The notes beneath the pieces were generated by a model that made no database searches, had not been told where the DNA came from, and saw only the letters and a list, made by a program, of their open reading frames with translations. Below, piece by piece: positions 16,072 through 57,212 of a DNA stretch of 64,000 nucleotides; the first letter of the stretch is position 1, and each line of letters starts with the position of its first letter. The DNA is from Escherichia coli (lineage in GTDB: Bacteria; Pseudomonadota; Gammaproteobacteria; Enterobacterales; Enterobacteriaceae): NCBI RefSeq assembly GCF_013315695.1, contig NZ_CP054353.1; one strand, given 5' to 3'. The position numbers were made by a program, and so were the translations under genes.

Positions 16072-16191
16072 ATGCCTGGCAGTTCCCTACTCTCGCATGG
16101 GGAGACCCCACACTACCATCGGCGCTACGGCGTTTCACTTCTGAGTTCGGCATGGGGTCAGGTGGGACCACCGCGCTAAGGCCGCCAGGCA
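16072..16191 (-). rRNA. rrfG: 5S ribosomal RNA
   Basis: 120-nt match (reverse complement) to E. coli 5S rRNA; tgcctggcggcc...gggaactgccaggcat. Confidence 0.95.
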
Positions 16192-16285
16192 AATTCTGTT
16201 TATCAGACCACTTCTGCGTTCTGATTTAATCTGTTATCAAGCTTACTTATCGATGTCTCTTCCGCCAAAACATCTTCGGCGTTGT

Positions 16286-19189
<2,904 letters not shown>

Positions 19190-19383
19190 TCACAACCCGA
19201 AGATGTTTCTTTCGACTCATCATCGTGTTGCGAAAATTTGAGAGACTCACGAACAACTTTCGTTGTTCAGTGTTTCAATTTTCAGCTTGATCCAGATTTT
19301 TAAAGAGCAAATATCTTAAACATGACTCGTAAGTCATCTTTAACGATATTAAGGTCGGTGACTTTCACTCACAAACCAGCAAG

Positions 19384-19459
19384 TGGCGTCCCCTAGGGGA
19401 TTCGAACCCCTGTTACCGCCGTGAAAGGGCGGTGTCCTGGGCCTCTAGACGAAGGGGAC
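19384..19459 (-). tRNA. gltW: tRNA-Glu (anticodon UUC) in 16S-23S spacer
   Basis: Reverse complement matches GTCCCCTTCGTCTAGAGGCCCAGGACACCGCCCTTTCACGGCGGTAACAGGGGTTCGAATCCCCTAGGGGACGCCA. Confidence 0.95.
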
Positions 19460-19544
19460 GTATCAGTCTGCTTCGCAAGACGCCTTGCTTTTCACTTTCT
19501 ATCAGACAATCTGTGTGAGCACTTCAAAGTACGCTTCTTTAAGG

Positions 19545-21086
<1,542 letters not shown>

Positions 21087-21210
21087 AAAAGTTTGATGCT
21101 CAAAGAATTAAACTTCGTAATGAATTACGTGTTCACTCTTGAGACTTGGTATTCATTTTTCGTCTTGCGACGTTAAGAATCCGTATCTTCGAGTGCCCAC
21201 ACAGATTGTC

Positions 21211-21230
21211 TGATAAATTGTTAAAGAGCA
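21211..21230 (-). promoter_or_regulatory. rrn leader boxA antitermination element
   Basis: Reverse complement reads TGCTCTTTAACAATTTATCA. Confidence 0.7.
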
Positions 21231-21259
21231 GTGCCGCTTCGCTTTTTCTCAGCGGCGCG

Positions 21260-21296
21260 GGGTGTGCATAATACGCTTTCCCGCTACAGAGTCAAG
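21260..21296 (-). promoter_or_regulatory. rRNA operon P2 promoter
   Basis: Minus-strand -35 TTGACT and -10 TATTAT with 16-bp spacer. Confidence 0.7.
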
Positions 21297-21374
21297 CATT
21301 TATTTTTGCTTTCTCTGCCGGAATTCTCAGGAGAACCCCGCTGACCCGGCGGCGTGTTTGCCGTTGTTCCGTGT

Positions 21375-21440
21375 CAGTGGTGGCGCATTATAGGGAGTTA
21401 TTCCGGCCTGACAAGAGGAAAATATAAAAACTTTATCGTT
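21375..21440 (-). promoter_or_regulatory. rRNA operon P1 promoter with A/T-rich UP element
   Basis: Minus-strand -35 TTGTCA (21409-21414), 16-bp spacer, -10 TATAAT (21387-21392); A/T-rich upstream. Confidence 0.75.
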
Positions 21441-21497
21441 CGCTCATTTTTCAGGCAAAACATCTTAAATATAGTCTTTCCCGTCTAACTTATAGAC

Positions 21498-21526
21498 AAA
21501 AACGAGCCCCGAAGGGCTCGTTTTAT
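21498..21526 (-). terminator. clpB rho-independent terminator
   Basis: Minus-strand hairpin acgagccc-ttcg-gggctcgt followed by U-run. Confidence 0.7.
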
Positions 21527-21529
21527 CAT

Positions 21530-24103
21530 TTACTGGACGGCGACAATCCGGTCTTCATTAACTTCCAGGCGAATCACTTTACCCGGAACCAATTCACCAG
21601 ACAGTATTTGCTGTGCCAGCGGGTTTTCGATCTGCTGCTGAATTGCACGTTTCAGAGGACGTGCACCATAGACCGGATCGTAACCGTTCTCGCTCAGCAG
21701 TTTCAGCGCCTCGTCAGAAATGTGGATTTCATAACCACGTTCTTCCAGACGTTTATACAGACGTTTCAACTGAATCTGCGCAATCGACGCAATGTGCTGT
21801 TCACCCAGCGGATGGAAGACCACCACTTCATCGATACGGTTAATGAATTCCGGACGGAAGTTATGGCTTACCACACCGAGCACCAGCTCTTTCATGTGCG
21901 CATAATCCAGTTCACCGAAGCGTTCCTGAATCAAATCGGAACCGAGGTTAGAGGTCATAATGACAACCGTATTACGGAAGTCGACCGTTCTCCCCTGCCC
22001 GTCAGTCAGACGCCCATCATCCAATACCTGCAACAGAATGTTGAAGACATCCGGATGCGCTTTTTCCACTTCATCCAGCAGGATGACGGAATACGGACGA
22101 CGACGCACCGCTTCGGTCAGGTAGCCACCTTCTTCATAACCGACATATCCCGGAGGCGCACCAACCAGACGAGACACCGAGTGTTTCTCCATAAACTCGG
22201 ACATATCGATACGGACCATCGCCTCGTCGCTATCAAACATAAAGTTCGCCAGCGCCTTACAAAGCTCAGTTTTCCCCACACCCGTTGGGCCGAGGAACAG
22301 GAATGAACCAATCGGGCGATTTGGATCCGCCAGCCCCGCACGGCTACGACGAATAGCGTTAGATACCGCATCAACCGCTTCGTTCTGACCAATAACGCGA
22401 TGGTGCAGTTCTTGCTCCATACGCAGCAGTTTTTCGCGCTCGCTTTCCATCATGCGAGAAACCGGAATCCCCGTCCAACGCGCCAGCACTTCAGCAATTT
22501 CGGCATCGGTCACTTTATTACGCAACAGACGCATAGTTTTGCCTTCGAGCTGCGTTGCGGCTTCCAGTTGCTTTTCCAGTTCCGGGATTTTGCCGTATTG
22601 CAGTTCAGACATCCGCGCCAGGTCACCCACACGGCGAGCCTGTTCAATAGCGATTTTCGCCTGTTCCAGTTCCGCTTTAATGGTCTGCGTACCAGAAAGC
22701 GATGCTTTCTCTGCTTTCCACTCTTCTTCTAACTCGGAGTACTGACGTTCTTTGTCGCTCAGTTCTTCGTTGAGCATATCCAGGCGTTTTTTACTGGCTT
22801 CATCAGACTCTTTCATTAACGCCTGTTGTTCCAGTTTGAGCTGGATGATACGGCGATCGAGTCGGTCGAGTTCTTCTGGTTTTGAGTCAATCTGCATACG
22901 AATGCTGGATGCTGCTTCATCGATCAGGTCGATGGCTTTATCTGGCAGCTGACGGTCAGCAATGTAGCGATGAGACAACGTCGCCGCTGCAACAATTGCC
23001 GGGTCAGTAATTTGCACATGGTGGTGCAATTCGTAACGTTCTTTCAGGCCACGCAGAATCGCAATGGTATCTTCAACAGAAGGCTCGGCAACAAACACTT
23101 TTTGGAAACGACGTTCCAGCGCAGCATCTTTTTCGATGTACTGGCGATATTCGTCAAGCGTCGTGGCACCTACGCAGTGCAATTCACCACGCGCCAGCGC
23201 CGGTTTCAGCATGTTTCCGGCGTCCATTGCGCCATCGGCTTTACCCGCGCCGACCATGGTATGTAATTCGTCGATAAACAGGATGACGTTGCCTTCCTGT
23301 TTGGCAAGATCGTTAAGTACGCCTTTTAAACGTTCTTCAAACTCACCGCGATATTTCGCCCCAGCCACCAGCGCGCCCATATCCAGCGCCAGTACGCGGC
23401 GGCCTTTCAACCCTTCGGGCACTTCGCCGTTGATAATACGCTGCGCCAGACCTTCAACGATGGCAGTCTTACCGACGCCGGGTTCACCAATCAGTACCGG
23501 GTTATTTTTAGTACGACGTTGCAGCACCTGAATGGTACGGCGAATTTCTTCATCACGACCAATCACCGGATCGAGTTTACCCTGTTCGGCTCGTTCGGTA
23601 AGGTCGATGGTATATTTTTTCAAAGCCTGACGTTGGTCTTCAGCACCTTGATCGTTCACGCTTTCACCTCCACGCATTTGTTCAATCGCTTGAGTAATGT
23701 TGGCGGTGGTCGCCCCTGCTGCTTTCAGGATGTCGGCCAGCGTGCCGCGAGACTCAAGTGCCGCCAGAACGAACAGTTCTGACGAGATAAAGTTATCACC
23801 ACGTTTTTGCGCCAGCTTGTCGCAAAGATTAAGAACGCGCACCAGATCCTGTGATGGCTGGACATCACCACCAGTACCTTCAACCTGCGGTAAACGATTT
23901 AATGCCTGATTGATATCTGTGCGCAACTGGCCAGCATTTATGCCAGCGGATGTTAATAAAGGACTAACCGAACCCCCTTCCTGATTCAGCAGGGCGCTCA
24001 TTAAATGAAGTGGTTCGATGAATTGGTTGTCGTGCCCGAGTGCAAGTGATTGGGCATCGGCAAGAGCAAGCTGGAATTTATTAGTAAGACGATCCAGACG
24101 CAT
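21530..24103 (-). CDS. clpB: Hsp100 disaggregase ClpB
   Basis: 857 aa from [11 protein letters not shown]; two AAA+ modules with Walker A GEPGVGKT and GPTGVGKT; coiled-coil middle domain. Confidence 0.95.
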
Positions 24104-24139
24104 AACTCCTCCCATAACGGATCAAAGTTGCTACTGGAG

Positions 24140-24172
24140 ATTAAATGAGGTCATCCCTCAATTATTCAAGGT
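24140..24172 (-). promoter_or_regulatory. Putative sigma-32 heat-shock promoter of clpB
   Basis: Minus-strand CTTGAAT -N14- CCTCATTTA resembling sigma-32 consensus CTTGAAA-N13-15-CCCCATNT. Confidence 0.55.
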
Positions 24173-24232
24173 TATTGACCAGATTAATGTGAAAAGAAAA
24201 TCACGCGTACCGGATCGTCTTGATTCTTTAGG

Positions 24233-24964
24233 TTATATCAGCCAAATGAAACTTGCCATACGACCGGTGGTCTTGTCGCGACGATAAGAGAAGAAAGTCT
24301 CATTTTCCGTATATGTACAACGGCCGCCGCCGAAAATTTGTTCAACGCCAACGCTCGCCAGACGCTGTCGGGCAAGGAGATAAATATCCGCCAGATACTT
24401 ATCACCATGCTGAATGAAAGCTGTACTCGCTTTGGCGTCTACTGCCATAAACGCCTCGCGAACCTCCGCCCCCACTTCAAACGCGCGTGGACCAATTGCC
24501 GGCCCTAACCAGGCGAGAATATTTTCCGGATTATCAGCAAAACAAGAAACCGTCTCTTCCAGCACGCCAGAACACAGCCCGCGCCAGCCTGCATGAGCGG
24601 CGGCAACTTCCGTTCCCGTACGATTGCAAAACAGCACAGGGAGGCAGTCAGCCGTCATCACTGCGCAAACCGTGCCGGGCGTATTGCTATAAGAGGCATC
24701 AGCTCGTTTTGAGGCATAAGGTTCGCCAGTAAGCTTAAGCACATCTTTGCCGTGTACCTGCTCAAGCCAGACCGGTTTTGAAGGCAAATTGCCCGCAGCA
24801 AAAAGTCGCTTGCGATTCTCTTCAACGTGATCCGGGTTATCGCCACAATGGGCACCGAGGTTGAGCGAGTCATACGGGGGCAAGCTCACGCCGCCGATAC
24901 GAGTAGAGCTACAAGCCGCAACACCTTTTGGCAGCGGCCACTGCGGGACAATCAGCTTACTCAT
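24233..24964 (-). CDS. pgeF: Peptidoglycan editing factor / purine nucleoside phosphorylase-like YfiH family protein
   Basis: 243-aa ORF matching remembered YfiH; overlaps rluD stop (operon). Confidence 0.9.
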   Translation of the reverse strand: MSKLIVPQWPLPKGVAACSSTRIGGVSLPPYDSLNLGAHCGDNPDHVEENRKRLFAAGNLPSKPVWLEQVHGKDVLKLTGEPYASKRADASYSNTPGTVCAVMTADCLPVLFCNRTGTEVAAAHAGWRGLCSGVLEETVSCFADNPENILAWLGPAIGPRAFEVGAEVREAFMAVDAKASTAFIQHGDKYLADIYLLARQRLASVGVEQIFGGGRCTYTENETFFSYRRDKTTGRMASFIWLI

Positions 24965-25941
24965 AACCAGTCCACTTCATCTTTATGCTCTTCGAAATCG
25001 GCGCGCATCACCTCAATCAGCTCCACCATATCTTGTGGAATAGGCGCATGCCATTCCATTTCGATACCGGAGATCGGGTGATAAAGACGCAGCATGGTTG
25101 CATGAAGCGCCTGGCGGTCAAATTTACGCAGCGTGGAGATAAACGCTTCCGAAGCACCTTTTGGCGGACGCGGACGGCCACCATAAACCGGATCGCCCAC
25201 CAGCGGATGAGTGATATGGGCCATATGCACGCGGATCTGGTGCGTACGTCCAGTTTCCAGACGCAACCGCAGACGCGTGTGCACACGGAAGTGTTCCATG
25301 ATGCGATAGTGAGTCACCGCTGGTTTGCCCATCGGATGCACCGCCATGTGAGTACGTTTGGTCGGGTGGCGACTGATTGGCTCATCCACCGTACCACCAG
25401 CGGTCATATGACCAATTGCGACAGCTTCATACTCACGAGTAATTTCACGCCGTTGCAAAGATTCGACTAAACGCGTCTGAGCCGGAACGGTTTTTGCCAC
25501 AACCATCAGGCCAGTGGTGTCTTTATCCAGACGATGGACGATGCCCGCACGCGGTACATCGGCAATGGGCGGATAATAATGAAGCAATGCATTCAGTACC
25601 GTGCCATCCGGGTTACCCGCGCCAGGATGTACCACCAGGTCGCGTGGTTTATTAATGACGATGATATCTTCATCTTCATAGACGATATCCAGCGGGATAT
25701 CCTGCGGTTCAAAACGCGCTTCTTCTTCAATCTCAGCGTTGATGGCCACCTGCTCGCCACCCAATACTTTTTCTTTCGGCTTATCACAAACTTTGCCGTT
25801 AACCAGCACGCGCTGGTCGAGGATCCATTCTTTTATCCGCGAACGTGAATAATCCGGGAACATTTCGGCCAAAGCCTGATCTAAGCGTTGACCGAGTTGG
25901 TTTTCGGACACCGTTGCAGTGAGCTGTACTCGTTGTGCCAT
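24961..25941 (-). CDS. rluD: 23S rRNA pseudouridine synthase D
   Basis: 326 aa; S4 domain N-terminus and RluA-family catalytic motif HRLDKDTTG. Confidence 0.95.
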   Translation of the reverse strand: MAQRVQLTATVSENQLGQRLDQALAEMFPDYSRSRIKEWILDQRVLVNGKVCDKPKEKVLGGEQVAINAEIEEEARFEPQDIPLDIVYEDEDIIVINKPRDLVVHPGAGNPDGTVLNALLHYYPPIADVPRAGIVHRLDKDTTGLMVVAKTVPAQTRLVESLQRREITREYEAVAIGHMTAGGTVDEPISRHPTKRTHMAVHPMGKPAVTHYRIMEHFRVHTRLRLRLETGRTHQIRVHMAHITHPLVGDPVYGGRPRPPKGASEAFISTLRKFDRQALHATMLRLYHPISGIEMEWHAPIPQDMVELIEVMRADFEEHKDEVDWL

Positions 25942-26075
25942 ATATACTGCTTCTTCGTTTATCGTTGGGGTTTTACGGCTTTGCCGTTTAATATAGTGTG
26001 CTATTGTAGCTGGTCTTAACCGGGAGCAGGAACAGAGAATCTCCCGTATTACATTTTGAGGAAAGTCAAAACGTC

Positions 26076-26813
26076 ATGACGCGCATGAAATATCTGGTGG
26101 CAGCCGCCACACTAAGCCTGTTTTTGGCGGGTTGCTCGGGGTCAAAGGAAGAAGTACCTGATAATCCGCCAAATGAAATTTACGCGACTGCACAACAAAA
26201 GCTGCAGGACGGTAACTGGAGACAGGCAATAACGCAACTGGAAGCGTTAGATAATCGCTATCCGTTTGGTCCGTATTCGCAGCAGGTGCAGCTGGATCTC
26301 ATCTACGCCTACTATAAAAACGCCGATTTGCCGTTAGCACAGGCTGCCATCGATCGTTTTATTCGCCTTAACCCGACCCATCCGAATATCGATTATGTCA
26401 TGTACATGCGTGGCCTGACCAATATGGCGCTGGATGACAGTGCGCTGCAAGGGTTCTTTGGCGTTGACCGTAGCGATCGCGATCCTCAACATGCACGAGC
26501 TGCGTTTAGTGACTTTTCCAAACTGGTGCGCGGCTATCCGAACAGTCAGTACACCACCGATGCCACCAAACGTCTGGTATTCCTGAAAGATCGTCTGGCG
26601 AAATATGAATACTCCGTTGCCGAGTACTATACAGAACGTGGTGCATGGGTTGCCGTCGTTAACCGCGTAGAAGGCATGTTGCGCGACTACCCGGATACCC
26701 AGGCTACGCGTGATGCGCTGCCGCTGATGGAAAATGCATACCGTCAGATGCAGATGAATGCGCAAGCTGAAAAAGTAGCGAAAATCATCGCTGCAAACAG
26801 CAGCAATACATAA
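26076..26813 (+). CDS. bamD: Outer membrane protein assembly factor BamD (TPR lipoprotein)
   Basis: 245 aa; lipoprotein signal LFLAGCSG; TPR-like repeats. Confidence 0.95.
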
Positions 26814-26850
26814 CAAAAACCTGAAACACAAAACGGCAGCCCTTGAGCTG

Positions 26851-28276
26851 TAATGCCGATCAGTTAAGGATCAGTTGACCGATCCAGTGGCTGTGTAAGA
26901 ATCCGGAAACGCTCACTTGTTTCCGGATTTTTTTATGCACATTGGACAGGCTCTTGATCTGGTATCCCGTTACGATTCTCTGCGTAACCCACTGACTTCT
27001 CTGGGGGATTACCTCGACCCCGAACTCATCTCTCGTTGCCTTGCCGAATCAGGTACTGTAACGCTACGCAAGCGCCGTCTTCCCCTCGAAATGATGGTCT
27101 GGTGTATTGTTGGCATGGCGCTTGAGCGTAAAGAACCTCTTCACCAGATTGTGAATCGCCTGGACATCATGCTGCCGGGCAATCGCCCCTTCGTTGCCCC
27201 CAGTGCCGTTATTCAGGCCCGCCAGCGCCTGGGAAGTGAGGCTGTCCGCCGCGTGTTCACGAAAACAGCGCAGCTCTGGCATAACGCCACGCCGCATCCG
27301 CACTGGTGCGGCCTGACCCTGCTGGCCATCGATGGTGTGTTCTGGCGCACACCGGATACACCAGAGAACGATGCAGCCTTCCCCCGCCAGACACATGCCG
27401 GGAACCCGGCGCTCTACCCGCAGGTCAAAATGGTCTGCCAGATGGAACTGACCAGCCATCTGCTGACGGCTGCAGCCTTCGGCACGATGAAGAACAGCGA
27501 AAATGAGCTTGCTGAGCAACTTATAGAACAAACCGGCGATAACACTCTGACGTTAATGGATAAAGGTTATTACTCACTGGGACTGTTAAATGCCTGGAGC
27601 CTGGCGGGAGAACACCGCCACTGGATGATACCTCTCAGAAAGGGAGCGCAATATGAAGAGATCAGAAAACTGGGTAAAGGCGATCATCTGGTGAAGCTGA
27701 AAACCAGCCCGCAGGCACGAAAAAAGTGGCCGGGACTGGGAAATGAAGTGACAGCCCGCCTGCTGACCGTGACGCGCAAAGGAAAAGTCTGCCATCTGCT
27801 GACGTCGATGACGGACGCCATGCGCTTCCCCGGAGGAGAAATGGCGGATCTGTACAGTCATCGCTGGGAAATCGAACTGGGATACAGGGAGATAAAACAG
27901 ACGATGCAACTGAGCAGGCTGACGCTGAGAAGTAAAAAACCGGAGCTTGTGGAGCAAGAGCTGTGGGGTGTCTTACTGGCTTATAATCTGGTGAGATATC
28001 AGATGATTAAAATGGCGGAACATCTGAAAGGTTACTGGCCGAATCAACTGAGTTTCTCAGAATCATGCGGAATGGTGATGAGAATGCTGATGACATTGCA
28101 GGGCGCTTCACCGGGACGTATACCGGAGCTGATGCGCGATCTTGCAAGTATGGGACAACTTGTGAAATTACCGACAAGAAGGGAAAGGGCCTTCCCGAGA
28201 GTGGTAAAGGAGAGGCCCTGGAAATACCCCACAGCCCCGAAAAAGAGCCAGTCAGTTGCTTAACTGACTGGCATTA
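26851..28276 (+). mobile_element. Insertion sequence IS4 (1426 bp) with imperfect terminal inverted repeats
   Basis: Left end taatgccgatcagttaagg, right end gcttaactgactggcatta; single transposase ORF; length matches IS4; no flanking direct repeat. Confidence 0.9.
26935..28263 (+). CDS. insG: IS4 transposase (DDE)
   Basis: 442 aa from [14 protein letters not shown]; matches remembered IS4 transposase. Confidence 0.9.
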
Positions 28277-28303
28277 CAGCCTTCGGGCTGGCATTTTTTA
28301 TGG
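28277..28303 (+). terminator. Orphan plus-strand hairpin + T-tract abutting IS4 right end (likely terminator of an absent rightward-reading gene, eno in K-12 order)
   Basis: cagcc-ttcg-ggctg followed by gcatttttta; no plus-strand gene upstream in window. Confidence 0.4.
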
Positions 28304-28308
28304 TTGAG

Positions 28309-29181
28309 TTACCAGCGACCGGACGCGCCGCCACCGCCAGAAGAACCGCCCCCGCCGCTAAATCCGCCGCCACTTGAGCCGCCACCGGAACCGCTGTTGT
28401 CTGAATGATAACTTCTACCAGATGCTTTTTTCTGAAGTACACATAAACAGGTAAAGACCATAATGGTGGTGAAAGTAAAAAAGAAGAAAAATACAGCAAT
28501 GGAAAAAGTTTTATCGGAGAACAGGAATAAATCTAAAAGATAGATTGCTGAAATACAGACACTGCTTTTACATGCGCGACAAAAATTACTGCCTTGATGA
28601 AAAAACCAGAAAGGGAAGAACATCACTGCAAATACCCAAAAAATAGCAAAGTAATAATGATCACTGGAAGACGCTGATTCAATTTCTGAAGGATTAGCCG
28701 GATATTGGTGTTGTGAAGTGAGTTGGTTATTCAAAGCGTTTATAGCTAGCTCTAATCCCTGAGCTAATTTTTGTTGTTTAAATGCGGGTATCATGTTGCT
28801 ACGGATGATATCTCCAGCCAGAGCATCGGTTACCTTTTCTTCCAGCCCATAACCTACCTGGATGCGGACAGTGCGATCCGACCAGGCAACAATGATCAGT
28901 ATCCCATCATTGCGTTTGGCATCTCCTAAACGCCAATTGTTAAAAACCCTTGTAGCATATTGTTCAATTGTCTCGTCTTTGGTTGTGGGAATAATTAATA
29001 CAGCAATTTGTACTTGGGTATTATTGAAAATAGATTCTAACTTCCGCGTCAGTTCTTTCTTTTCTTGTGAGTTTAAGCTACTCGTAAGATCCGTAACTTG
29101 TTGCTGTAATTGTGGGACAATAGTTGGTTGGGCTGCAACAAAGGAACACACGAATGTGAATATTAGTATGAAATAGCGCAT
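28309..29181 (-). CDS. ygcG: TPM-domain (YgcG-family) membrane protein with Gly/Ser-rich C-terminal tail
   Basis: 290 aa from [19 protein letters not shown] (signal peptide); TM segment; C-terminal [23 protein letters not shown] tail. Confidence 0.8.
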
Positions 29182-29474
29182 TATAAATGTCCCATTAAAG
29201 CTGGATAAATAAATTGACGGCGGCATCGGTAATTTGAGATTCGTTATAATTAAAAACGAACACAGAAAAAATAAGTATAATTTCGGTGAATGTTTTTGAC
29301 ATGATTAAATCCCTTTACTTTATTTATTTCTGACATAATACGTTACTTCCTTTTATTATTAACGATCTGTTTCTCATTTTTCTTTAAACCTGCCTGTAAC
29401 AGAATGTTAATAAGACATGATTGTTGTGGCAGGATCTGCAATAATTAACAATTATCCACTTCACAGAGAATGCT

Positions 29475-30146
29475 ATGCAGTACCCGATTAACGAGATGTT
29501 CCAGACCCTGCAAGGTGAGGGTTACTTTACCGGCGTCCCCGCCATTTTTATTCGTTTACAGGGATGTCCGGTCGGCTGTGCCTGGTGCGACACCAAACAC
29601 ACCTGGGAAAAGCTTGAGGATCGGGAAGTCTCCCTTTTCAGCATTCTGGCGAAGACCAAAGAGAGTGATAAGTGGGGGGCGGCGAGCAGTGAAGATTTGC
29701 TGGCTGTCATTGGTCGTCAGGGATACACCGCGCGGCATGTGGTGATTACGGGTGGTGAGCCTTGCATTCATGATTTGCTGCCACTGACTGACCTGCTCGA
29801 AAAGAACGGTTTTAGCTGCCAGATAGAAACCAGCGGCACTCACGAAGTACGTTGCACACCGAATACCTGGGTTACTGTTTCGCCAAAACTGAACATGCGC
29901 GGCGGCTATGAAGTGTTGTCACAGGCACTGGAGCGCGCTAACGAAATTAAACATCCTGTTGGGCGTGTTCGTGACATCGAAGCGCTGGATGAGCTATTAG
30001 CAACGCTGACCGATGATAAACCACGAGTCATTGCACTGCAGCCGATTAGCCAAAAGGATGATGCCACTCGTTTGTGCATTGAAACCTGCATTGCGCGTAA
30101 CTGGCGTTTGTCGATGCAAACACATAAATATCTAAATATTGCCTGA
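29475..30146 (+). CDS. queE: 7-carboxy-7-deazaguanine synthase (radical SAM, queuosine biosynthesis)
   Basis: 223 aa; radical-SAM Cys motif CPVGCAWCDT; matches remembered YgcF/QueE. Confidence 0.95.
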   Translation: MQYPINEMFQTLQGEGYFTGVPAIFIRLQGCPVGCAWCDTKHTWEKLEDREVSLFSILAKTKESDKWGAASSEDLLAVIGRQGYTARHVVITGGEPCIHDLLPLTDLLEKNGFSCQIETSGTHEVRCTPNTWVTVSPKLNMRGGYEVLSQALERANEIKHPVGRVRDIEALDELLATLTDDKPRVIALQPISQKDDATRLCIETCIARNWRLSMQTHKYLNIA

Positions 30147-30485
30147 TTAAACATTTATAAGCGTTATAAATGGGTGGAACCTGTAAAGACTTCTACTCAT
30201 TTATATTGTTTGTCGCCTCTGAAAACTCATCCATCTTGCCCATCCTGAACTAATCATTATCATTCTCTACAAATTCTGTGGCGTTAATTTTTCGCTGGAG
30301 TGAAAATTATTGCGGTAAAGTTTGGTAGATTTTAGTTTGTATAGAGTTATTTTAAATATTTACCTTTTTAATCAATGGATTAAGTGCTCTTTAACATAAT
30401 GGATGTGTTGTTTGTGTGATACTGTAAAGTTGGTAGATTGTGACTGGCTTAAAAAATCATTAATTAATAATAGGTTATGTTTAGA
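30147..30485 (+). promoter_or_regulatory. CRISPR leader (A/T-rich) of distal array
   Basis: A/T-rich 340 bp ending in motif agttggtagattgt shared with the cas-adjacent leader; immediately precedes first repeat. Confidence 0.6.
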
Positions 30486-31307
30486 GTGTTCCCCGCGCCA
30501 GCGGGGATAAACCAAATACAGGACCAATATTTTGATATATATAATCGTGTTCCCCGCGCCAGCGGGGATAAACCGGTGATTCTGGCAATACTGGCACTTC
30601 CGTTTTGGTGTTCCCCGCGCCAGCGGGGATAAACCGGGCGGTTAACTGGTCCTGTGCGGATATGCGCTGTGTTCCCCGCGCCAGCGGGGATAAACCGATG
30701 TGGAAAGGCGAGCTGAGGGTGGCCTACGCGTGTTCCCCGCGCCAGCGGGGATAAACCGGCTGAGGAAATTGCTAAACCCTCGCAGGATCCGTGTTCCCCG
30801 CGCCAGCGGGGATAAACCGTTGCCGGTACAGCTCCAGCATTAATCCCCACCGTGTTCCCCGCGCCAGCGGGGATAAACCGTTGCGACGTGGTGCGCGCTC
30901 GAGCACAACGTTGTGTTCCCCGCGCCAGCGGGGATAAACCGATGTAAACCCCTCGCGCATCGAGTCAAATGTCGTGTTCCCCGCGCCAGCGGGGATAAAC
31001 CGCCACCTCAGCCTGCGCGCCCGCTGAATATTCCGTGTTCCCCGCTCCAGCGGGGATAAACCGGGACGCGTTCCATCAGGGCGGGTCCAGGGAATGTGTT
31101 CCCCGCGCCAGCGGGGATAAACCGCAGGCGGCGCAGTGGCGCATGAATCCGTTCGCGTGTTCCCCGCGCCAGCGGGGATAAACCGGAGTTTGTGAATTTA
31201 ACAGAATTCCGCGCCCGGTGTTCCCCGCGCCAGCGGGGATAAACCAGCCAATTGCCATATATGCCATCGCCAGCAGCCGTGTTCCCCGCGCCAGCGGGGA
31301 TAAACCA
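30486..31307 (+). CRISPR. Type I-E CRISPR array, 14 repeats / 13 spacers (distal array between queE and ygcE)
   Basis: 29-bp repeat GTGTTCCCCGCGCCAGCGGGGATAAACCG at exact 61-bp period from 30486 to 31279; 32-bp unique spacers; repeat 10 has GCTCC variant; repeats 1, 13, 14 end in A. Confidence 0.97.
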
Positions 31308-31394
31308 CCATATAACCCGTTATCTCTTTCTCAAGTTTTTATATTAGCTGTACTTGTAATAAGCAACATATCCACATAACACCTCATGTTCAAA

Positions 31395-31425
31395 ATAGTT
31401 CCCCATGCCAGATAAGTTCACAATT
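31395..31425 (+). repeat. Degenerate fossil CRISPR repeat
   Basis: atagttccccatgccagataag resembles repeat with internal deletion, about two periods beyond last intact repeat. Confidence 0.4.
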
Positions 31426-31760
31426 ATCGATACAAAAAATCAAATTTAATCAAAGTGTTATTTGTATAATCCTTAAACCGTTAAGAAATTTTAATATATT
31501 ATTTTTTTAATATTAATTAATGCCTGTTAATTTTTTCTTTAGAATAACAGTGTATTTTTTAAGCTTGTTATTCATTGATTAAGTAATAAATCTGGAAGTT
31601 TGTCTTTGTTTTGAGGCTAATGAGTGGTTTTACATAACCGCCTCTATACGCTGTTGATGAATAGTTCTTATGAATAAAGATATCCAGTTCATACTTTAAG
31701 TGAAAATTGATAAAGTGCGATTCGTATTGTCTTTTATTCTAAAGACATCGAGTGTAGTTA

Positions 31761-31898
31761 ATATTCCTTGTAAAAACAGGGATAAACCGAACTAGTTAAA
31801 GTTTTTATTATGTTCCCTGCATCAGCGGGGATAAACCGGACTTGTTATCATTTTTTAAGTTGTCGAACTTATGTTCCCCGCGTCAGCGGGGATAACCA
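31761..31898 (+). CRISPR. Degenerate CRISPR mini-array (3 decayed repeats)
   Basis: atattccttgtaaaaacagggataaaccg / atgttccctgcatcagcggggataaaccg / atgttccccgcgtcagcggggataacc; last two 61 bp apart; abuts ygcE 3' end. Confidence 0.7.
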
Positions 31899-31944
31899 TT
31901 CAGGTATGTTCAGGCCGGGCAGTTTCCCGCCCGGCCTTCCTCAC

Positions 31945-33423
31945 TTACGCATTCGACCAGCTCTGGATCGAATCCGCATTCCCCAATTCCCCATGCATCA
32001 CTTCATACGATTTTTTCAGTATCACATCAGTGTGTTTGGTTAGGTCTTTGAAAATGCCTTTATTCATCGCGTCGTAGCGTTTGGCGTTGCTCTCAACAGG
32101 CATAAAGATATCTTTCACGCGAACCATTTTGTCGACAGCCGTTGCGTAATCCGGATACAGACCAAGCCCTACCGCCGTATTAATCGCCGCCCCCAGACTT
32201 GCACAACCATTAATGGCGTTACGGCGTGCCGGAAGGTTGAACACGTCGGCAAAAATCTGCATAAACAGATCGCTGTTCGAACCGCCGCCAGTAATGATCA
32301 CATGCTTTGCAAAGTGATTCATTTCATTACACATATTGTCGTAATTGTTCTTCAGCGTCAGCGCCACGCTTTCCAGTATCGAACGATATATCCATGCGTA
32401 ATCCATGCTGGAATCAAAGCCGATCATAATCCCGCGTTTGTATGGTTCCCACGGATTGGTCAGCCAGTCCAGCACCGTCATCAGACCATTACAGCCAGGT
32501 GGCACACAAGACGCTTTTTTGTTGAGCAAATCTTCCGGTGAAAGATCCTGTGCTTTGGCATCCTGAATTAACGACTCGCCTAGCATGTCGCGTAGCCAGC
32601 TCACCGTCCACATGCCTTTGCGAATACCGTAACCTTCATACAGCAAGGTTTGCGGAATAGAAGACATAATCGGCCAGTACGCTACCGGATCTTTCGGCAG
32701 TGCTTTACCGTTCATCATCAGCGCGATGTAGGTGCCAAGAGAAATCACCGCCGTTTCATCATCCAGTAATCCGGCTCCCAGAGCTTCTACCGGTTTATCA
32801 CTGGTGGTACAAACAACCGGCAGCCCAGCTGGGAAATGTGTCGCCAGCGCGGCTTGAGGAGTGATATGCCCAAGAACAGTGCCCGGCATTTGCACATCAA
32901 ACAGCATATGACGGGGGATATTAAACTTCTCCATGACTGCGGCATCTTCACTCCATGCCCAGCTCTTATAATCCACCGGCCACTGACCAAAATAGTTGGC
33001 GATATTGTCTTTAAACTCGCCGGTTAAGCGATGCGTCAGATAACCCGAAAAAGAGGTGACATATGCCACGTCAGGATTCGTATGTTCGTAAGGGCGTGTA
33101 ACGCGTGCATCCTGCCAGCTAATCAACGGCGCAGCTGGCGTGCCATCGGCTTTCAATAACGCACGGCAGCAACGGATGGATCCCAGACCAATACCGACAA
33201 TATCTTCTTTATTTCCGGCAAACTGACTCATCAAATCGTGACCGGCAAAACATAATGATGCCCATAAATCGTCGTCAGGATGTTCTGCGGTATCGGCATC
33301 TGGCGTGTGCATCGGCTGCAATAAGCCTTTGCCTTCGCAAACCACATTACCTTCCAGATCATACATCACCACTTTTGTGCTCTGACTTCCGCCATCAATC
33401 CCTATGATGTATTTTTTCGACAT
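31945..33423 (-). CDS. ygcE: FGGY-family carbohydrate kinase
   Basis: 492-aa ORF with FGGY kinase N- and C-terminal motifs (IGIDGGSQSTK...). Confidence 0.9.
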   Translation of the reverse strand: MSKKYIIGIDGGSQSTKVVMYDLEGNVVCEGKGLLQPMHTPDADTAEHPDDDLWASLCFAGHDLMSQFAGNKEDIVGIGLGSIRCCRALLKADGTPAAPLISWQDARVTRPYEHTNPDVAYVTSFSGYLTHRLTGEFKDNIANYFGQWPVDYKSWAWSEDAAVMEKFNIPRHMLFDVQMPGTVLGHITPQAALATHFPAGLPVVCTTSDKPVEALGAGLLDDETAVISLGTYIALMMNGKALPKDPVAYWPIMSSIPQTLLYEGYGIRKGMWTVSWLRDMLGESLIQDAKAQDLSPEDLLNKKASCVPPGCNGLMTVLDWLTNPWEPYKRGIMIGFDSSMDYAWIYRSILESVALTLKNNYDNMCNEMNHFAKHVIITGGGSNSDLFMQIFADVFNLPARRNAINGCASLGAAINTAVGLGLYPDYATAVDKMVRVKDIFMPVESNAKRYDAMNKGIFKDLTKHTDVILKKSYEVMHGELGNADSIQSWSNA

Positions 33424-47005: not shown

Positions 47006-47740
47006 ATGTCCAAACTCGATCTAAACGCCCTGAACGAACTGCCAAAGGTAGACCGGATTCTGGCGCTGGCGGAAACTAACGCCCAACTGGAAAAACTGGA
47101 CGCTGAAGGCCGCGTAGCCTGGGCGCTGGATAATCTGCCCGGTGAATATGTACTTTCTTCCAGCTTTGGCATTCAGGCGGCGGTGAGCCTGCATCTGGTG
47201 AATCAGATTCACCCGGATATTCCAGTGATCCTCACCGATACCGGTTATCTGTTCCCGGAAACCTACCGCTTTATTGACGAGTTAACGGACAAACTCAAAC
47301 TCAACCTGAAAGTGTACCGTGCTACCGAAAGCGCTGCCTGGCAGGAAGCGCGCTACGGCAAACTGTGGGAACAGGGCGTTGAAGGTATTGAAAAGTACAA
47401 CGATATCAACAAAGTCGAACCGATGAACCGGGCGCTAAAAGAACTGAACGCGCAAACCTGGTTTGCCGGCCTGCGCCGTGAACAATCCGGCAGTCGTGCC
47501 AATTTACCGGTGCTGGCAATTCAGCGTGGCGTATTTAAAGTGCTGCCGATTATCGACTGGGATAACCGAACTATTTATCAGTACCTGCAAAAACATGGCC
47601 TGAAATATCACCCATTATGGGATGAAGGATATTTATCGGTCGGTGATACCCATACAACCCGTAAATGGGAACCCGGCATGGCGGAAGAAGAAACGCGTTT
47701 CTTTGGCTTAAAAAGAGAATGTGGGTTACACGAAGGGTAA
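47006..47740 (+). CDS. cysH: Phosphoadenosine phosphosulfate (PAPS) reductase
   Basis: 244 aa from [11 protein letters not shown]; C-terminal ECGLH motif; ORF-track call has 51-codon upstream extension. Confidence 0.9.
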
Positions 47741-47757
47741 ATATTGCCGGATAAATT

Positions 47758-47796
47758 AAACGCCTCTGTCAGAAATGATGGGGGCGTTTTTATTTT
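47758..47796 (+). terminator. Putative cysH terminator
   Basis: aaacgcc...ggcgttt stem followed by TTATTTT; long loop, modest confidence. Confidence 0.4.
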
Positions 47797-47906
47797 GCGA
47801 GCAGCATTCCTGATTTTAAACGTGAACGTCGTTGGAAGAATTAACAGGTATAGAATGGCGTTGGGTGCTTGAGGCTGTCTGGCGTTAAGCATTCGCGAGG
47901 TTCCAG

Positions 47907-48008
47907 ATGGACAAAAGCCCCAGGCGATATTTCTATCAACCTGAGGCCAGCGTTCGAACCCAAACAATTCGAATGTTAGTCTCTTCTTTGCAGGGAGGCA
48001 AGACATGC
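47907..48008 (+). CDS. mok-like leader ORF translationally coupled to hok-like toxin
   Basis: 33-codon ORF ([34 protein letters not shown]) whose stop overlaps the toxin start (ATGcTGA). Confidence 0.4.
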
Positions 48009-48157
48009 TGACAAAATATGCCCTTGTGGCAATCATAGTGCTGTGTTTTACAGTACTGGGATTCACGCTGATGGTAGGCGACTCGTTGTGTGAGTTGAGT
48101 ATCAGAGAACGTGGTATGGAGTTTAAGGCGGTTCTCGCTTACGAATCGAAGAAGTAG
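48005..48157 (+). CDS. Hok/Gef-family type I toxin (50 aa)
   Basis: [50 protein letters not shown]; single TM helix then conserved SLCE...AYES periplasmic motif; RBS agggagg 7 nt upstream; below 60-aa cutoff of ORF track. Confidence 0.8.
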
Positions 48158-48160
48158 CCA

Positions 48161-48225
48161 CCACGCGGGGGTAAAACCCCGCGTACTGAATTGTGATGGT
48201 TTGGTCTCCTGCACCCTTTTTTAAT
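48161..48225 (+). terminator. 3' structured region of the hok-like transcript
   Basis: GC hairpin acgcgggg-gtaaaa-ccccgcgt, then ggtctcctgcaccc + T6; 3' GCACCC could pair with upstream GGGUGC (47873-47878). Confidence 0.4.
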
Positions 48226-48351: not shown

Positions 48352-51051
48352 ATGCGTAAATATCCTTTAAGTTTACTGAAGGATAAAAATATTGTGACTT
48401 TTTTTGATTTCTGGGGAAAAACCCGACGCGGCGAGAAAGACGGGGGCGACGACTATCACCTTCTTTGCTGGCATTCGCTGGATGTAGCCGCGATGGGCTA
48501 TTTAATGGTTAAAAGCAATTGCTTCGGACTGGCTGACTATTTTCGTCAATTAGGTTTCGCTGACACGGAGCTGGCAGCACAATTTTTCGCCTGGCTGCTG
48601 TGCTGGCACGATATTGGAAAATTTGCCCGCTCTTTTCAGCAACTTTACCTGCACCCACAACTCAAGGTTCCGGAAGGCGCAAGAAAGAATTACGAAAAGA
48701 TCTCTCATTCAACGCTGGGCTACTGGTTGTGGAACCATTATTTAAGTGAATGTCAGGAGTTGCTTCCTTCATCTTCACTCTCTCCGCGCAAACTTAAACG
48801 GGTGATGGAGATGTGGATGCCCATGACTACCGGGCATCATGGTCGACCCCCTGAGCGTATGGATGAACTGGATAATTTTCTGCCTGAAGACAAAGGTGCC
48901 GCACGAGATTTTCTCCTTGCAATCAAGGTACTGTTTCCGCTCATAGAGATCCCCACATTCTGGGATGATGACGAGGGCGTTGAACTTATAAAACAACTTT
49001 CCTGGTATATCTCTGCAACCGTCGTACTTGCAGACTGGACGGGATCGTCAACGCGATATTTTCCACGCGTCGCACAGACAATGGATATTGAAGATTACTG
49101 GCAGAAAACTTTAGTTCAGGCTCAAAACGCCTTAACCGTCTTTCCTCCAAAAGCAGAAAGCGCGCCTTTCACCGGAATTAATACGCTGTTTCCTTTTATT
49201 GAGAATCCGACACCGCTACAGCAAAAGGTGCTGGATCTGGATATCAGCCAGCCGGGACCACAGTTATTTATTCTGGAGGATGTAACCGGCGCAGGTAAAA
49301 CAGAAGCGGCGCTTATCCTGGCGCACAGGTTGATGGCTGCGGGGAAAGCGCAGGGTTTGTTTTTTGGCCTGCCAACAATGGCAACGGCCAATGCCATGTA
49401 CGATCGACTGGTCAAAACCTGGCTTGCTTTCTATTCGCCAGAGTCCCGCCCCAGCCTGGTGCTGGCACACAGTGCCCGAACATTAATGGACCGCTTTAAT
49501 GAATCACTCTGGTCCGGTGATTTAGTCGGGTCAGAAGAACCGGATGAACAAACGTTCAGTCAGGGATGTGCGGCCTGGTTTGCCGACAGTAACAAGAAGG
49601 CGCTACTGGCTGAAATTGGCGTCGGCACGCTGGATCAGGCGATGATGGCTGTGATGCCGTTCAAACATAATAATCTGCGGCTTCTGGGACTGAGTAACAA
49701 AATCCTGCTGGCTGATGAGATCCATGCCTGTGACGCTTACATGTCATGCATTCTTGAAGGGCTGATCGAGCGGCAGGCGCGTGGCGGAAACAGCGTCATT
49801 TTGCTTTCTGCCACGTTATCTCAACAGCAGCGCGACAAACTCGTTGCTGCCTTTGCGCGTGGTATAGAGGGCCAGCAAGAAGCTCCGTTCCTGGAAAAGG
49901 ATGATTACCCCTGGCTGACGCACGTTACGAAATCCGATGTGCATTCACACCGGGTAGCGACGCGCAAAGACGTTGAGCGCAGCGTGAGTGTGGGTTGGCT
50001 TCATAGCGAACAAGAGTGTATTGCGCGTATCGAATCGGCGGTAAGTCAGGGGAAATGTATCGCCTGGATCCGAAATTCTGTCGATGACGCCATCCAGGTT
50101 CATCGTCAGTTACTTGCCCGCGGCGTCATTCCTGCTTCCAGCCTTTCACTTTTTCATAGCCGCTTTGCTTTTAGCGATCGCCAGCGAATTGAAACGGAGA
50201 CGCTGGCACGCTTTGGTAAAGAAGACTGTTCACAGCGTGCCGGAAAAGTCCTCATTTGTACTCAAGTCCTGGAGCAGAGCGTTGACTGCGACCTGGACGA
50301 AATGATTTCCGACCTTGCCCCTGTTGATTTACTGATCCAGCGAGCAGGGCGATTACAGCGACATATCCGCGATATGAATGGCCAGTTAAAGCGTGACGGT
50401 AAAGACGAGCGTCACCCTCCTGAATTGCTGATTCTGGCCCCCGTCTGGGACGACTCTCCGGGTGACGAATGGTTTGGCAGTGCCATGCGTAACAGTGCAT
50501 TTGTCTATCCCGATCATGGGCGAATCTGGCTGACGCAGCGTGTGCTGCGTGAGCAAGGTGCTATTCAGATGCCACACTCAGCCCGGCTTCTGATTGAATC
50601 AGTCTACGGTGAGGACGTAGTAATGCCGGAAGGGTTTGCCCGCAGCGAGCAGGAGCAAGTGGGCAAATATTACTGCGATCGCGCAATGGCTAAAAAGTTT
50701 GTACTGAACTTCAGGCCCGGCTATGCCGCCAATATCAACGATTACCTCCCGGAAAAACTGTCGACACGTCTGGCTGAAGAGTCTGTTTCCCTGTGGCTGG
50801 CTACCTGTATTGACGGTGTGGTGAAGCCTTATGCCACAGGTGCACACGCATGGGAAATGAGCGTTGTCAGAGTGCGCCGAAGCTGGTGGAAAAAACATCG
50901 GGATGAGTTTGCTTTACTGGAAGGGGATGCGTTCAGGCAGTGGTGCGTTGAACAGCGGCATGATCCGGAGATGGCAAACGTGATTTTAGTCACCGATGAC
51001 GAAAGTTGTGGGTATTCGGCTACGGAGGGATTGATTGGCAAGGTTGGTTGA
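48352..51051 (+). CDS. cas3: Cas3 HD-nuclease/helicase (type I signature protein)
   Basis: 899-aa ORF; HD motif LCWHDIGKF; helicase motif I TGAGKTEA, motif II DEIHA; position upstream of cse1; start codon uncertain. Confidence 0.9.
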   Translation: MRKYPLSLLKDKNIVTFFDFWGKTRRGEKDGGDDYHLLCWHSLDVAAMGYLMVKSNCFGLADYFRQLGFADTELAAQFFAWLLCWHDIGKFARSFQQLYLHPQLKVPEGARKNYEKISHSTLGYWLWNHYLSECQELLPSSSLSPRKLKRVMEMWMPMTTGHHGRPPERMDELDNFLPEDKGAARDFLLAIKVLFPLIEIPTFWDDDEGVELIKQLSWYISATVVLADWTGSSTRYFPRVAQTMDIEDYWQKTLVQAQNALTVFPPKAESAPFTGINTLFPFIENPTPLQQKVLDLDISQPGPQLFILEDVTGAGKTEAALILAHRLMAAGKAQGLFFGLPTMATANAMYDRLVKTWLAFYSPESRPSLVLAHSARTLMDRFNESLWSGDLVGSEEPDEQTFSQGCAAWFADSNKKALLAEIGVGTLDQAMMAVMPFKHNNLRLLGLSNKILLADEIHACDAYMSCILEGLIERQARGGNSVILLSATLSQQQRDKLVAAFARGIEGQQEAPFLEKDDYPWLTHVTKSDVHSHRVATRKDVERSVSVGWLHSEQECIARIESAVSQGKCIAWIRNSVDDAIQVHRQLLARGVIPASSLSLFHSRFAFSDRQRIETETLARFGKEDCSQRAGKVLICTQVLEQSVDCDLDEMISDLAPVDLLIQRAGRLQRHIRDMNGQLKRDGKDERHPPELLILAPVWDDSPGDEWFGSAMRNSAFVYPDHGRIWLTQRVLREQGAIQMPHSARLLIESVYGEDVVMPEGFARSEQEQVGKYYCDRAMAKKFVLNFRPGYAANINDYLPEKLSTRLAEESVSLWLATCIDGVVKPYATGAHAWEMSVVRVRRSWWKKHRDEFALLEGDAFRQWCVEQRHDPEMANVILVTDDESCGYSATEGLIGKVG

Positions 51052-57001: not shown

Positions 57002-57212
57002 GTGTTCCCCGCGCCAGCGGGGATAAACCGGCTGGGTACTAGCCAGGGTGAAAGGAAGTCACGTGTTCCCCGCGCCAGCGGGGATAAACCGTCGACAATG
57101 GATAAGTTGACTTCAGGTCTGGGGAGTTCCCCGCGCTAGCGGGAATAAACCGTGCAGTACGCCTGATGACAAACCAGGCATCGGGAGTTCCCCCGCGTCA
57201 GCGGGGAACTCC
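57002..57212 (+). CRISPR. Type I-E CRISPR array adjacent to cas2, 4 repeats / 3 spacers
   Basis: Repeats at 57002, 57063, 57124, 57185 (61-bp period); repeats 3 and 4 degenerate; spacers gctgggtactagccagggtgaaaggaagtcac, tcgacaatggataagttgacttcaggtctggg, tgcagtacgcctgatgacaaaccaggcatcgg. Confidence 0.9.

Follow-up and report, generated by a model that had tools for sequence, protein, structure and literature searches.

The intergenic region between cysH and cas3 in the window—i.e., the whole 64,000-nucleotide stretch of Escherichia coli DNA analyzed here—very probably holds the chromosomal type I toxin–antitoxin locus hokX/sokX of Escherichia, which belongs to the hok/sok family and has its closest K-12 paralogue in hokE/sokE. 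The hokX/sokX element of the cysH–cas3 region is known, annotated, widespread, and ordinary, and is not new. As read from the sequence, the toxin gene in the window is intact and the RNA signals of the family are all present, and mok, an element of the textbook circuit, is absent. The locus occupies the same cysH–cas3/iap site as the hokX/sokX of E. coli that was named for E. coli B, and is the same locus.

The toxin gene, hokX, lies at 48005–48157 on the plus strand and encodes 50 amino acids, including C14, C29, and Y46; both the coordinates and the peptide agree with an earlier note on this DNA. Its Shine–Dalgarno sequence, GGAGG (47994–47998), ends 6 nt before the ATG and overlaps the −35 box of the SokX promoter on the other strand; the strong ribosome-binding site described in that note is indeed there. 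The Hok/Gef assignment, made by eye from the architecture of the ORF, was borne out by a profile search, in which HokX residues 5–46 matched Pfam PF01848 (HOK_GEF) end to end (model positions 1–42 of 42; E=3.5e-11, 43 bits); the toxin is thus full length by this match, and its position between cysH and cas3 is as proposed. Among the residues reported to be conserved in >80% of Hok peptides (preprint 10.1101/2025.08.07.668861), C14, L28-C29-E30, and E39 of HokX align at the corresponding places. In all, 318 homologues were found at E<=1e-3.

The peptide is 100% identical to the RefSeq CDS WP_000956460.1, "Hok/Gef family protein", which is annotated by RefSeq in thousands of genomes. The description of the locus as unannotated was therefore true of the six-frame track used at the time, and of that track only. 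WP_000956460.1 is also the HokX allele of BL21 derivatives (E. coli B), and strain 2014C-3075 carries the same protein and is 100% identical across the 613-bp intergenic query. The locus has entered the literature as well: a "hok sok system" was listed among the elements of the CRISPR-I locus, present in every strain but those with the K-12-type cas-E2 variant (Almendros et al. 2014, PMC3903273); a gene between cysH and iap was reported in 2020 to be a homologue of the hokX of E. coli B (PMC7232551); and a 2025 survey found hok together with sokX beside cysH in 90% of uropathogenic strains, the remainder having sokX alone (PMC12736100). The value of the locus as a discovery is accordingly small, hokX/sokX being in RefSeq, named in papers, and carried by most E. 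coli. For annotation it has more to offer: six-frame tracks with a floor of 60 aa miss hokX, and a cysH–cas3 region called correctly should include hokX and SokX along with their signals.

The product name given by PGAP in RefSeq has remained generic, and the curated NCBIfam cut-offs are missed. The best-scoring NCBIfam model was HokA (NF007290), matched over residues 1–49 (57.7 bits; cut-off 89), and the Hok subfamily model NF007279 scored 41 against 73. We rejected an identity with HokA, since the NCBIfam matches are all sub-threshold and HokE is the nearer protein (78% identity vs. 50% for HokA); moreover, HokA encodes Cys46 directly, whereas HokX has Tyr46. K-12 HokE shares 39 of 50 residues with HokX, among them the MLTKYAL N-terminus, C14, C29, and an AYE(S/P)KK end, as well as the UACG motif in the coding sequence, and the two proteins fall in the same 60% cluster (cluster 46) of a 2026 preprint survey of Hok. 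The loci themselves differ: hokE is found at the ybdK–entD site, followed by IS186 in K-12, and its leader has diverged, with 84 bits against Rfam RF01794 compared to 111 bits for the window.

The UACG motif just mentioned, the Tyr46 codon UAC followed by G, lies at 48140–48143 (plus strand) and matches the recognition motif of TadA, making A48141 a candidate A-to-I site at which Tyr46 would become Cys. The stretch covering this codon and motif, GCTTACGAA, is invariant in all homologues of the consensus alignment. The mRNAs of hokC, hokD, and hokE are reported to be edited from Tyr to Cys at this codon (PMC12214031; preprint 10.1101/2025.08.07.668861), with a level of 40% for hokE (PMC12214031). 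By analogy, hokX mRNA may be edited by TadA at A48141. Since the locus encodes tyrosine in UACG, a cysteine at position 46 would be supplied only by such editing, and the second putative disulfide cysteine would, as for hokE, be an encoded tyrosine converted in the mRNA.

Upstream of the toxin gene, the cysH CDS ends at 47740 and is followed by an intrinsic terminator (47758–47797, plus strand; a 14-bp stem and then a T-run, found in a terminator scan) that separates cysH from the hokX unit; cas3 starts at 48352. The full-length hokX mRNA is predicted to span 47863–48223 on the plus strand, ~360 nt, from a 5' GGGUGC to a U-tract after the fold-back element, based on the start of the RF01794 match, the fold, and the end of homology. 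RF01794 matched 47863–48020 over its complete length (model positions 1–157) with 111.1 bits against a gathering threshold of 59 (E=6e-26), and was one of only eight Rfam families above threshold within the 64-kb window. This model carries the name "sok", and a plus-strand Sok was one reading that we rejected, since the model matches the hok-sense strand at K-12 hokB, hokC, and hokE. At the known K-12 loci, it scored 118 bits for hokC, 110 for hokB, 84 for hokE, and 104 for the sokX remnant, each time on the hok-sense strand. Because the model was built hok-sense and the annotated Sok RNAs lie opposite, the plus-strand match identifies a hok leader. At the other end, the homology of the hokX mRNA between cas-E1 and cas-less strains stops just past the T-run.

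With these profile matches in hand, the notion that the ORF is a chance, biologically meaningless short frame has its small size to recommend it and nothing else. The Pfam and Rfam matches, the 318 homologues, and a variation biased toward third codon positions (described below) all speak against it, and since the profile matches already refute it, we regard it as having practically no chance of being right.

The promoter of this mRNA can be read only in part: a putative −10 box, TAGAAT (47851–47856, plus strand), stands 6 nt upstream of the 5' GGGTGC, with no good −35 box. TAGAAT, TAGGAT, or TAAAAT occurs at an equal distance from GGGTGC in homologues from Klebsiella, Enterobacter, and Citrobacter. 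Both the hokX and the SokX promoters escaped a consensus scan with a threshold of 9/12 matches, so their assignment relies on the sequence as read, its conservation, and the 5' end of K-12 SokX.

The predicted fold of the 360-nt hokX RNA had a z-score of −3.5, and its two ends paired in both the minimum free energy (MFE) and the centroid structures, where 5' GGUGC..GAGGCUG faces 3' GGUCUC..GCACC. The 5' partner is the tac element (GGGUGC plus GAGG; 47863–47874), recovered in consensus and single-sequence folds alike, and the 3' partner is the fold-back inhibition element, fbi (UCUC..GCACCC followed by U6; 48205–48222). When 10 homologous mRNAs, drawn from six genera, were folded together into a consensus, columns 1–6 paired with 352–357 in 10/10 sequences and columns 9–12 with 345–348 in 9/10. 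The earlier suggestion that a 3' GCACCC (48211–48216) could pair with an upstream GGGTGC (47863–47868) has thus been recovered in the MFE, centroid, and consensus folds. A downstream complementary box at the end of the ORF (48133–48158) is predicted to pair with the hok Shine–Dalgarno region (47979–48003) in the full-length fold; likewise, consensus columns 119–143 pair with 273–298, including the invariant hok Shine–Dalgarno sequence (columns 135–139 with 277–282). Because the long-range pairs are nearly all invariant, covariation neither supports nor refutes them. Compensatory changes are present in the local hairpins of the consensus fold.

Two of these local hairpins would bear on the regulation of the mRNA. 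The Sok-target hairpin (47943–47983, plus strand) has at its base a GAGG (47943–47946) that corresponds to the canonical mok Shine–Dalgarno sequence, and its loop, CCCAAACAA, is complementary to the 5' end of SokX. This hairpin appeared in the predicted fold once the last 36 nt of the RNA were removed and the 5' end folded on itself, in line with what the R1 hok paradigm predicts; it also occurs in the consensus fold, where pair 95/111 shows compensatory changes. The second is the GC-rich hairpin of the 3'-UTR (48163–48184, 8 bp), already spotted in the earlier note, which folds as predicted, shows a compensatory pair (304/323), and would be expected to form the 3' end of the processed, active mRNA.

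SokX itself, an antisense RNA of 59 nt, is placed at 47907–47965 on the minus strand, with its 5' end at 47965, by alignment with sokX of K-12 MG1655 (b4701, 2887353–2887411), which is annotated between cysH and cas3 and runs opposite to the two genes. In the leader alignment, the window matches the annotated K-12 SokX without a difference over the whole of 47907–47965, and the earlier note was correct in placing a sokX annotation in the corresponding K-12 region. In the predicted fold of SokX, an unpaired 5' tail precedes a strong terminator hairpin (−23.8 kcal/mol, z = −3.4) and a U-run. Its putative promoter (47973–48001, minus strand) comprises a −35 box TTGCCT (48001–47996), a 17-nt spacer, and a −10 box TAACAT (47978–47973), with +1 seven nucleotides on at 47965. 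The hexamers are nearly invariant across genera and, with 8/12 consensus matches, fall under the threshold of the scan. The features expected of a cis-encoded antisense Sok, i.e., its own promoter and terminator and an overlap with the leader, are thus found in the sequence.

Taken in order, the window shares with hok/sok of plasmid R1 the 5' tac, the Sok-target hairpin with GAGG at its base, the Sok promoter in the leader, the hok ORF, the GC hairpin, and the 3' fbi; R1 hok/sok is borne on a plasmid, whereas the locus in the window is chromosomal. If the R1 paradigm applies, the full-length hokX mRNA would be stable and, owing to the pairing of its ends, neither translated nor bound by SokX. 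Slow trimming of the 3' end back to the GC hairpin would strip off the fold-back element, whereupon the 5' end would refold and the hairpin at 47943–47983 would expose a loop matching the 5' tail of SokX. Abundant, unstable SokX would then pair with the loop, and the duplex would be cleaved by RNase III. The toxin would be produced only on a fall in SokX, inserting into the inner membrane and causing depolarization. As to postsegregational killing, published work cited in the 2026 preprint found that other chromosomal hok loci did not mediate it.

The mok start is where the window parts from this paradigm. In R1, the mok frame opens 7 nt after the GAGG, whereas TCG occupies that place in the window. 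This canonical position (47954–47956) is ~9 nt inside the 5' end of Sok, much as the mokC and mokB starts of K-12 lie within SokC and SokB, roughly 6–10 nt from their 5' ends. Leaders with ATG at 47954–47956, which open a 67-aa in-frame Mok-Hok, were found in Klebsiella, Enterobacter, Pluralibacter, and one E. coli-like metagenomic allele; these lack the ATG equivalent to 47907 and have ATA, AAA, or ACA instead. Conversely, the window, all seven sampled E. coli loci, E. whittamii, an Escherichia clade strain, E. albertii, and two Pseudocitrobacter have TCG, and leaders of this Escherichia/Pseudocitrobacter type have the upstream ATG at 47907. A mok frame running from the Sok-covered Shine–Dalgarno sequence into hok is absent from all sampled Escherichia loci. 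A contig scan for leader types with a strict pattern retrieved 7 loci and so shows that two types exist, not how frequent they are. The K-12 hokE leader resembles that of the window in lacking an ATG where the canonical mok would start, and no mokE is annotated in K-12.

The upstream ORF that begins at 47907 had been read in the earlier note as a 33-codon frame ending inside the hok start codon, as in mok/hok translational coupling. It does end in ATGcTGA across the hok start, its TGA overlapping the hokX ATG, and it is 34 rather than 33 codons long (47907–48011, plus strand). The coupling to which it was likened did not hold up, the overlap being lineage-specific and the canonical mok start being TCG. 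The ORF reaches the hok ATG, as 34 aa, in three sampled loci only (the window, ACN002, and E. coli B); in O157:H7, two B2 strains, AVS0754, E. whittamii, and the clade strain, it has 18 codons and stops 40–41 nt upstream. Across all sampled loci other than those first three, it encodes 18–23 aa and ends 25–41 nt before the hok ATG. Since overlap with hok is limited to some lineages, translational coupling is not a conserved property of this leader. An ATG at 47973, from which 12 codons run to the hok start, was considered as a mini-mok and rejected: the conserved ATG lies within the −10 box of SokX, which explains its conservation and leaves it no weight as a sign of coding.

Expression of hok in the R1 paradigm requires translation of mok. 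Because the canonical mok start is absent, translation of hokX must either start at the hok Shine–Dalgarno sequence or depend on the upstream ORF. We tentatively propose, as a possibility to which we give less than even weight, that in Escherichia hokX, and apparently in hokE too, the mok start has been lost while the toxin has stayed under strong purifying selection, with translation either proceeding from the strong GGAGG independently of mok after refolding of the mRNA or driven by the new upstream ORF, which begins under the SokX terminator region. In the sampled loci, the loss of the canonical ATG and the presence of the upstream ATG coincide fully, in what are essentially two haplotype classes; such a coincidence would fit a start-codon switch.

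The same missing start can be read in another way, namely that hokX/sokX is a regulatory relic whose toxin is never translated and which is neutral or on its way to being lost, like the hok loci of K-12. TCG replaces the mok ATG in every sampled Escherichia locus, as this reading would have it, and chromosomal hok loci have been described as mostly inactive (PMC7232551, PMC12214031, and the 2026 preprint). However, the peptide does not vary as a relic should. Across 12 hokX loci with TCG leaders, we counted 14 distinct synonymous codon variants and a single nonsynonymous one (F15C), and 12 of the 14 variable sites were third codon positions. These counts are strong evidence that the HokX peptide is made and selected, and argue for purifying selection within the very lineage that has no canonical mok ATG. 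In addition, the RNA elements of the window, both putative promoters, and the strong hok Shine–Dalgarno sequence are all intact, and hokE, with a similar leader that also has no canonical mok ATG, gives rise to an mRNA that is expressed and edited in K-12 (PMC12214031).

The single amino acid variant links the window to published toxicity data. The commonest E. coli HokX allele has Cys15 and the window allele Phe15. Among 45 Hok homologues tested in the 2026 preprint, 42 were reported to be toxic; construct 46_982 (LRP171) is the F15C variant of the HokX in the window and was not among the three nontoxic ones, which are other sequences. As this construct differs from the window peptide by one residue, the toxicity result belongs to the F15C variant.

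The distribution of the locus among complete E. coli genomes bears on both readings. The 613-bp cysH–cas3 intergenic region had a match in 5425 of 5426 genomes, and the hokX ORF with its 3' UTR was found in 4220 of them (3419 at >=80% coverage), which answers the question of conservation in close relatives in the affirmative. The other ~1200 genomes, like K-12, have no hokX ORF. The alignment against K-12 called for in the earlier note found the leader and SokX identical and the ORF missing from its ATG on: the two sequences agree from 47863, where the mRNA begins, through the final base of the hok ATG (48007), after which there is no similarity. K-12 has thus kept the leader and SokX and lost the toxin ORF, so that its sokX locus consists of leader and SokX alone, whereas the window retains the ORF.

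In ~800 genomes, the locus breaks off at 48179, close to the loop of the GC hairpin, and in Rosetta/BL21 (E. coli B) the junction is the end of an IS186. The hokX of E. coli B thus has an IS186 end in its 3'-UTR hairpin, whereas the window allele is uninterrupted. Copies of IS186 also adjoin hokC and hokE in K-12. Finally, gene calls on 424 contigs give a variant of 81 aa in which the upstream ORF is fused in frame to hok; judging from its protein sequence, 5 nt near the Shine–Dalgarno sequence are probably missing. Frequent damage of these kinds is what a decaying locus would show. Weighed against the purifying selection on the peptide and the intact signals, the relic interpretation seems to us improbable, at roughly a one-in-four level of belief.

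The position of hokX raises the question of whether it is functionally tied to CRISPR-Cas, either as an addiction module for the cas island or through control of the cas3 promoter. The earlier note had set the toxin beside the cas3 control region; as a matter of position this stands, hokX lying 195 nt upstream of the cas3 start, and no functional signal went with it. In K-12, the replacement of the cas-E module took away the hok ORF from precisely its ATG onward, which also lends the idea some support. However, strains that have no cas-E genes carry an identical locus beside iap, with an unchanged 3' end (see also PMC3903273), and a U-tract closes the hokX mRNA ahead of the AT-rich region upstream of cas3. 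Moreover, in Klebsiella, Citrobacter, and Enterobacter, the closest homologues occupy unrelated sites, next to mutS, an effector gene, and a tehB-like gene. According to the preprint survey, hok genes are not enriched near defense systems (12% observed vs. 9.4% at random). We therefore consider a functional tie very unlikely. None of the HokX-like genes in the Klebsiella, Citrobacter, and Enterobacter loci examined was linked to cysH, and because of this the cysH–cas3 site is Escherichia-specific and uninformative on function. Farther along the window, a pattern search found a CRISPR array of 3 repeats at 57002 that Tandem Repeats Finder had missed.

What the locus may add to the biology of the family therefore lies in its leader rather than in its presence or its neighbors. 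If hokX of Escherichia is indeed translated independently of mok, or driven by the upstream ORF, it would represent a previously undescribed variant of the hok circuit, and, if confirmed, would mean that hok loci are able to run without the mok coupling by which the textbook defines them.

Comparison of the window, which carries a cas locus of the E1 type, with K-12, which carries the E2 type, showed that homology stops precisely at the hokX start codon (48005-48007). In the K-12 sokX region, the sequence is the same as that of the window as far as ...GACATG, and bears no relation to it beyond this point. Since the break falls at the hokX ATG, this comparison indicates that the K-12 cas genes arrived by a module exchange that removed the toxin ORF, while sparing SokX and its promoter. 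As to the antitoxin, the Rfam family RF01794 ("sok antitoxin") matched the window at 47863-48020, three hok loci of K-12 (L028, L029, and L030), and the K-12 sokX region (L003). These matches reveal that the family models the hok-sense leader strand and not the strand of the Sok RNA; therefore, the strand of a match is opposite to that of the antitoxin gene.

We also analyzed variants and relatives of the locus. Some E. coli lineages carry small leader indels through which the upstream ORF becomes an in-frame fusion with hokX, giving gene calls of 81 aa (P0011 and P0002), 82 aa (P0012), and 83 aa (P0013). One such fused variant, named after EHEC, occurs on 424 contigs and, to judge by its protein sequence, lacks 5 nt close to the Shine–Dalgarno sequence. 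In Enterobacter, two HokX-like loci lie in tandem, ~530 bp apart (Enterobacter kobei, L015 2472-2675 and 3001-3153; likewise in L016), and each has a complete leader with the canonical in-frame mok ATG. Two Pseudocitrobacter assemblies (L019 and L023) encode a HokX peptide 100% identical to that of the window, preceded by an Escherichia-type leader, i.e., TCG plus an upstream ATG, which suggests either recent horizontal transfer or contamination.

The locus is interrupted within the GC hairpin of the 3′-UTR (48179) in BL21/Rosetta and ~800 further genomes, and this interruption splits the fold-back element off the mRNA. In the E. coli B derivative, the junction consists of a 56-nt IS186 end (L008 2240-2296); GC-rich palindromes are a known preference of IS186. 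On the minus strand, two long ORFs, one of 152 aa with a GTG start (47608-48066) and one of 92 aa (47936-48214), overlap the end of cysH and the hokX unit. Neither is present in the RefSeq annotation, and both look like shadows of structured, GC-balanced plus-strand features.

Type I-E CRISPR arrays built on the repeat GTGTTCCCCGCGCCAGCGGGGATAAACCG occur twice in the window: an array of 14 repeats lies between queE and ygcE (30486-31307), and an array of only 3 repeats adjoins cas2/iap (57002-57152). An IS4-family transposase gene (26917-28263; 304 bits; context span 16074-32094) links bamD/rluD/clpB and an rRNA operon (16074-21086) directly to ygcG-queE-ygcE. Among 5426 complete E. coli genomes, just one shares this junction, and collinearity with strain 2014C-3075 is absent upstream of ~28.3 kb. 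The junction thus suggests that an IS-rich genome, possibly a Shigella-like one, underwent a large IS-mediated rearrangement.

Within the toxin itself, the Tyr46 codon UAC, followed by G (48140-48143), forms a TadA editing motif that is invariant across all homologues. Editing of this candidate site would convert Tyr46 to Cys46, the putative disulfide partner of Cys29.
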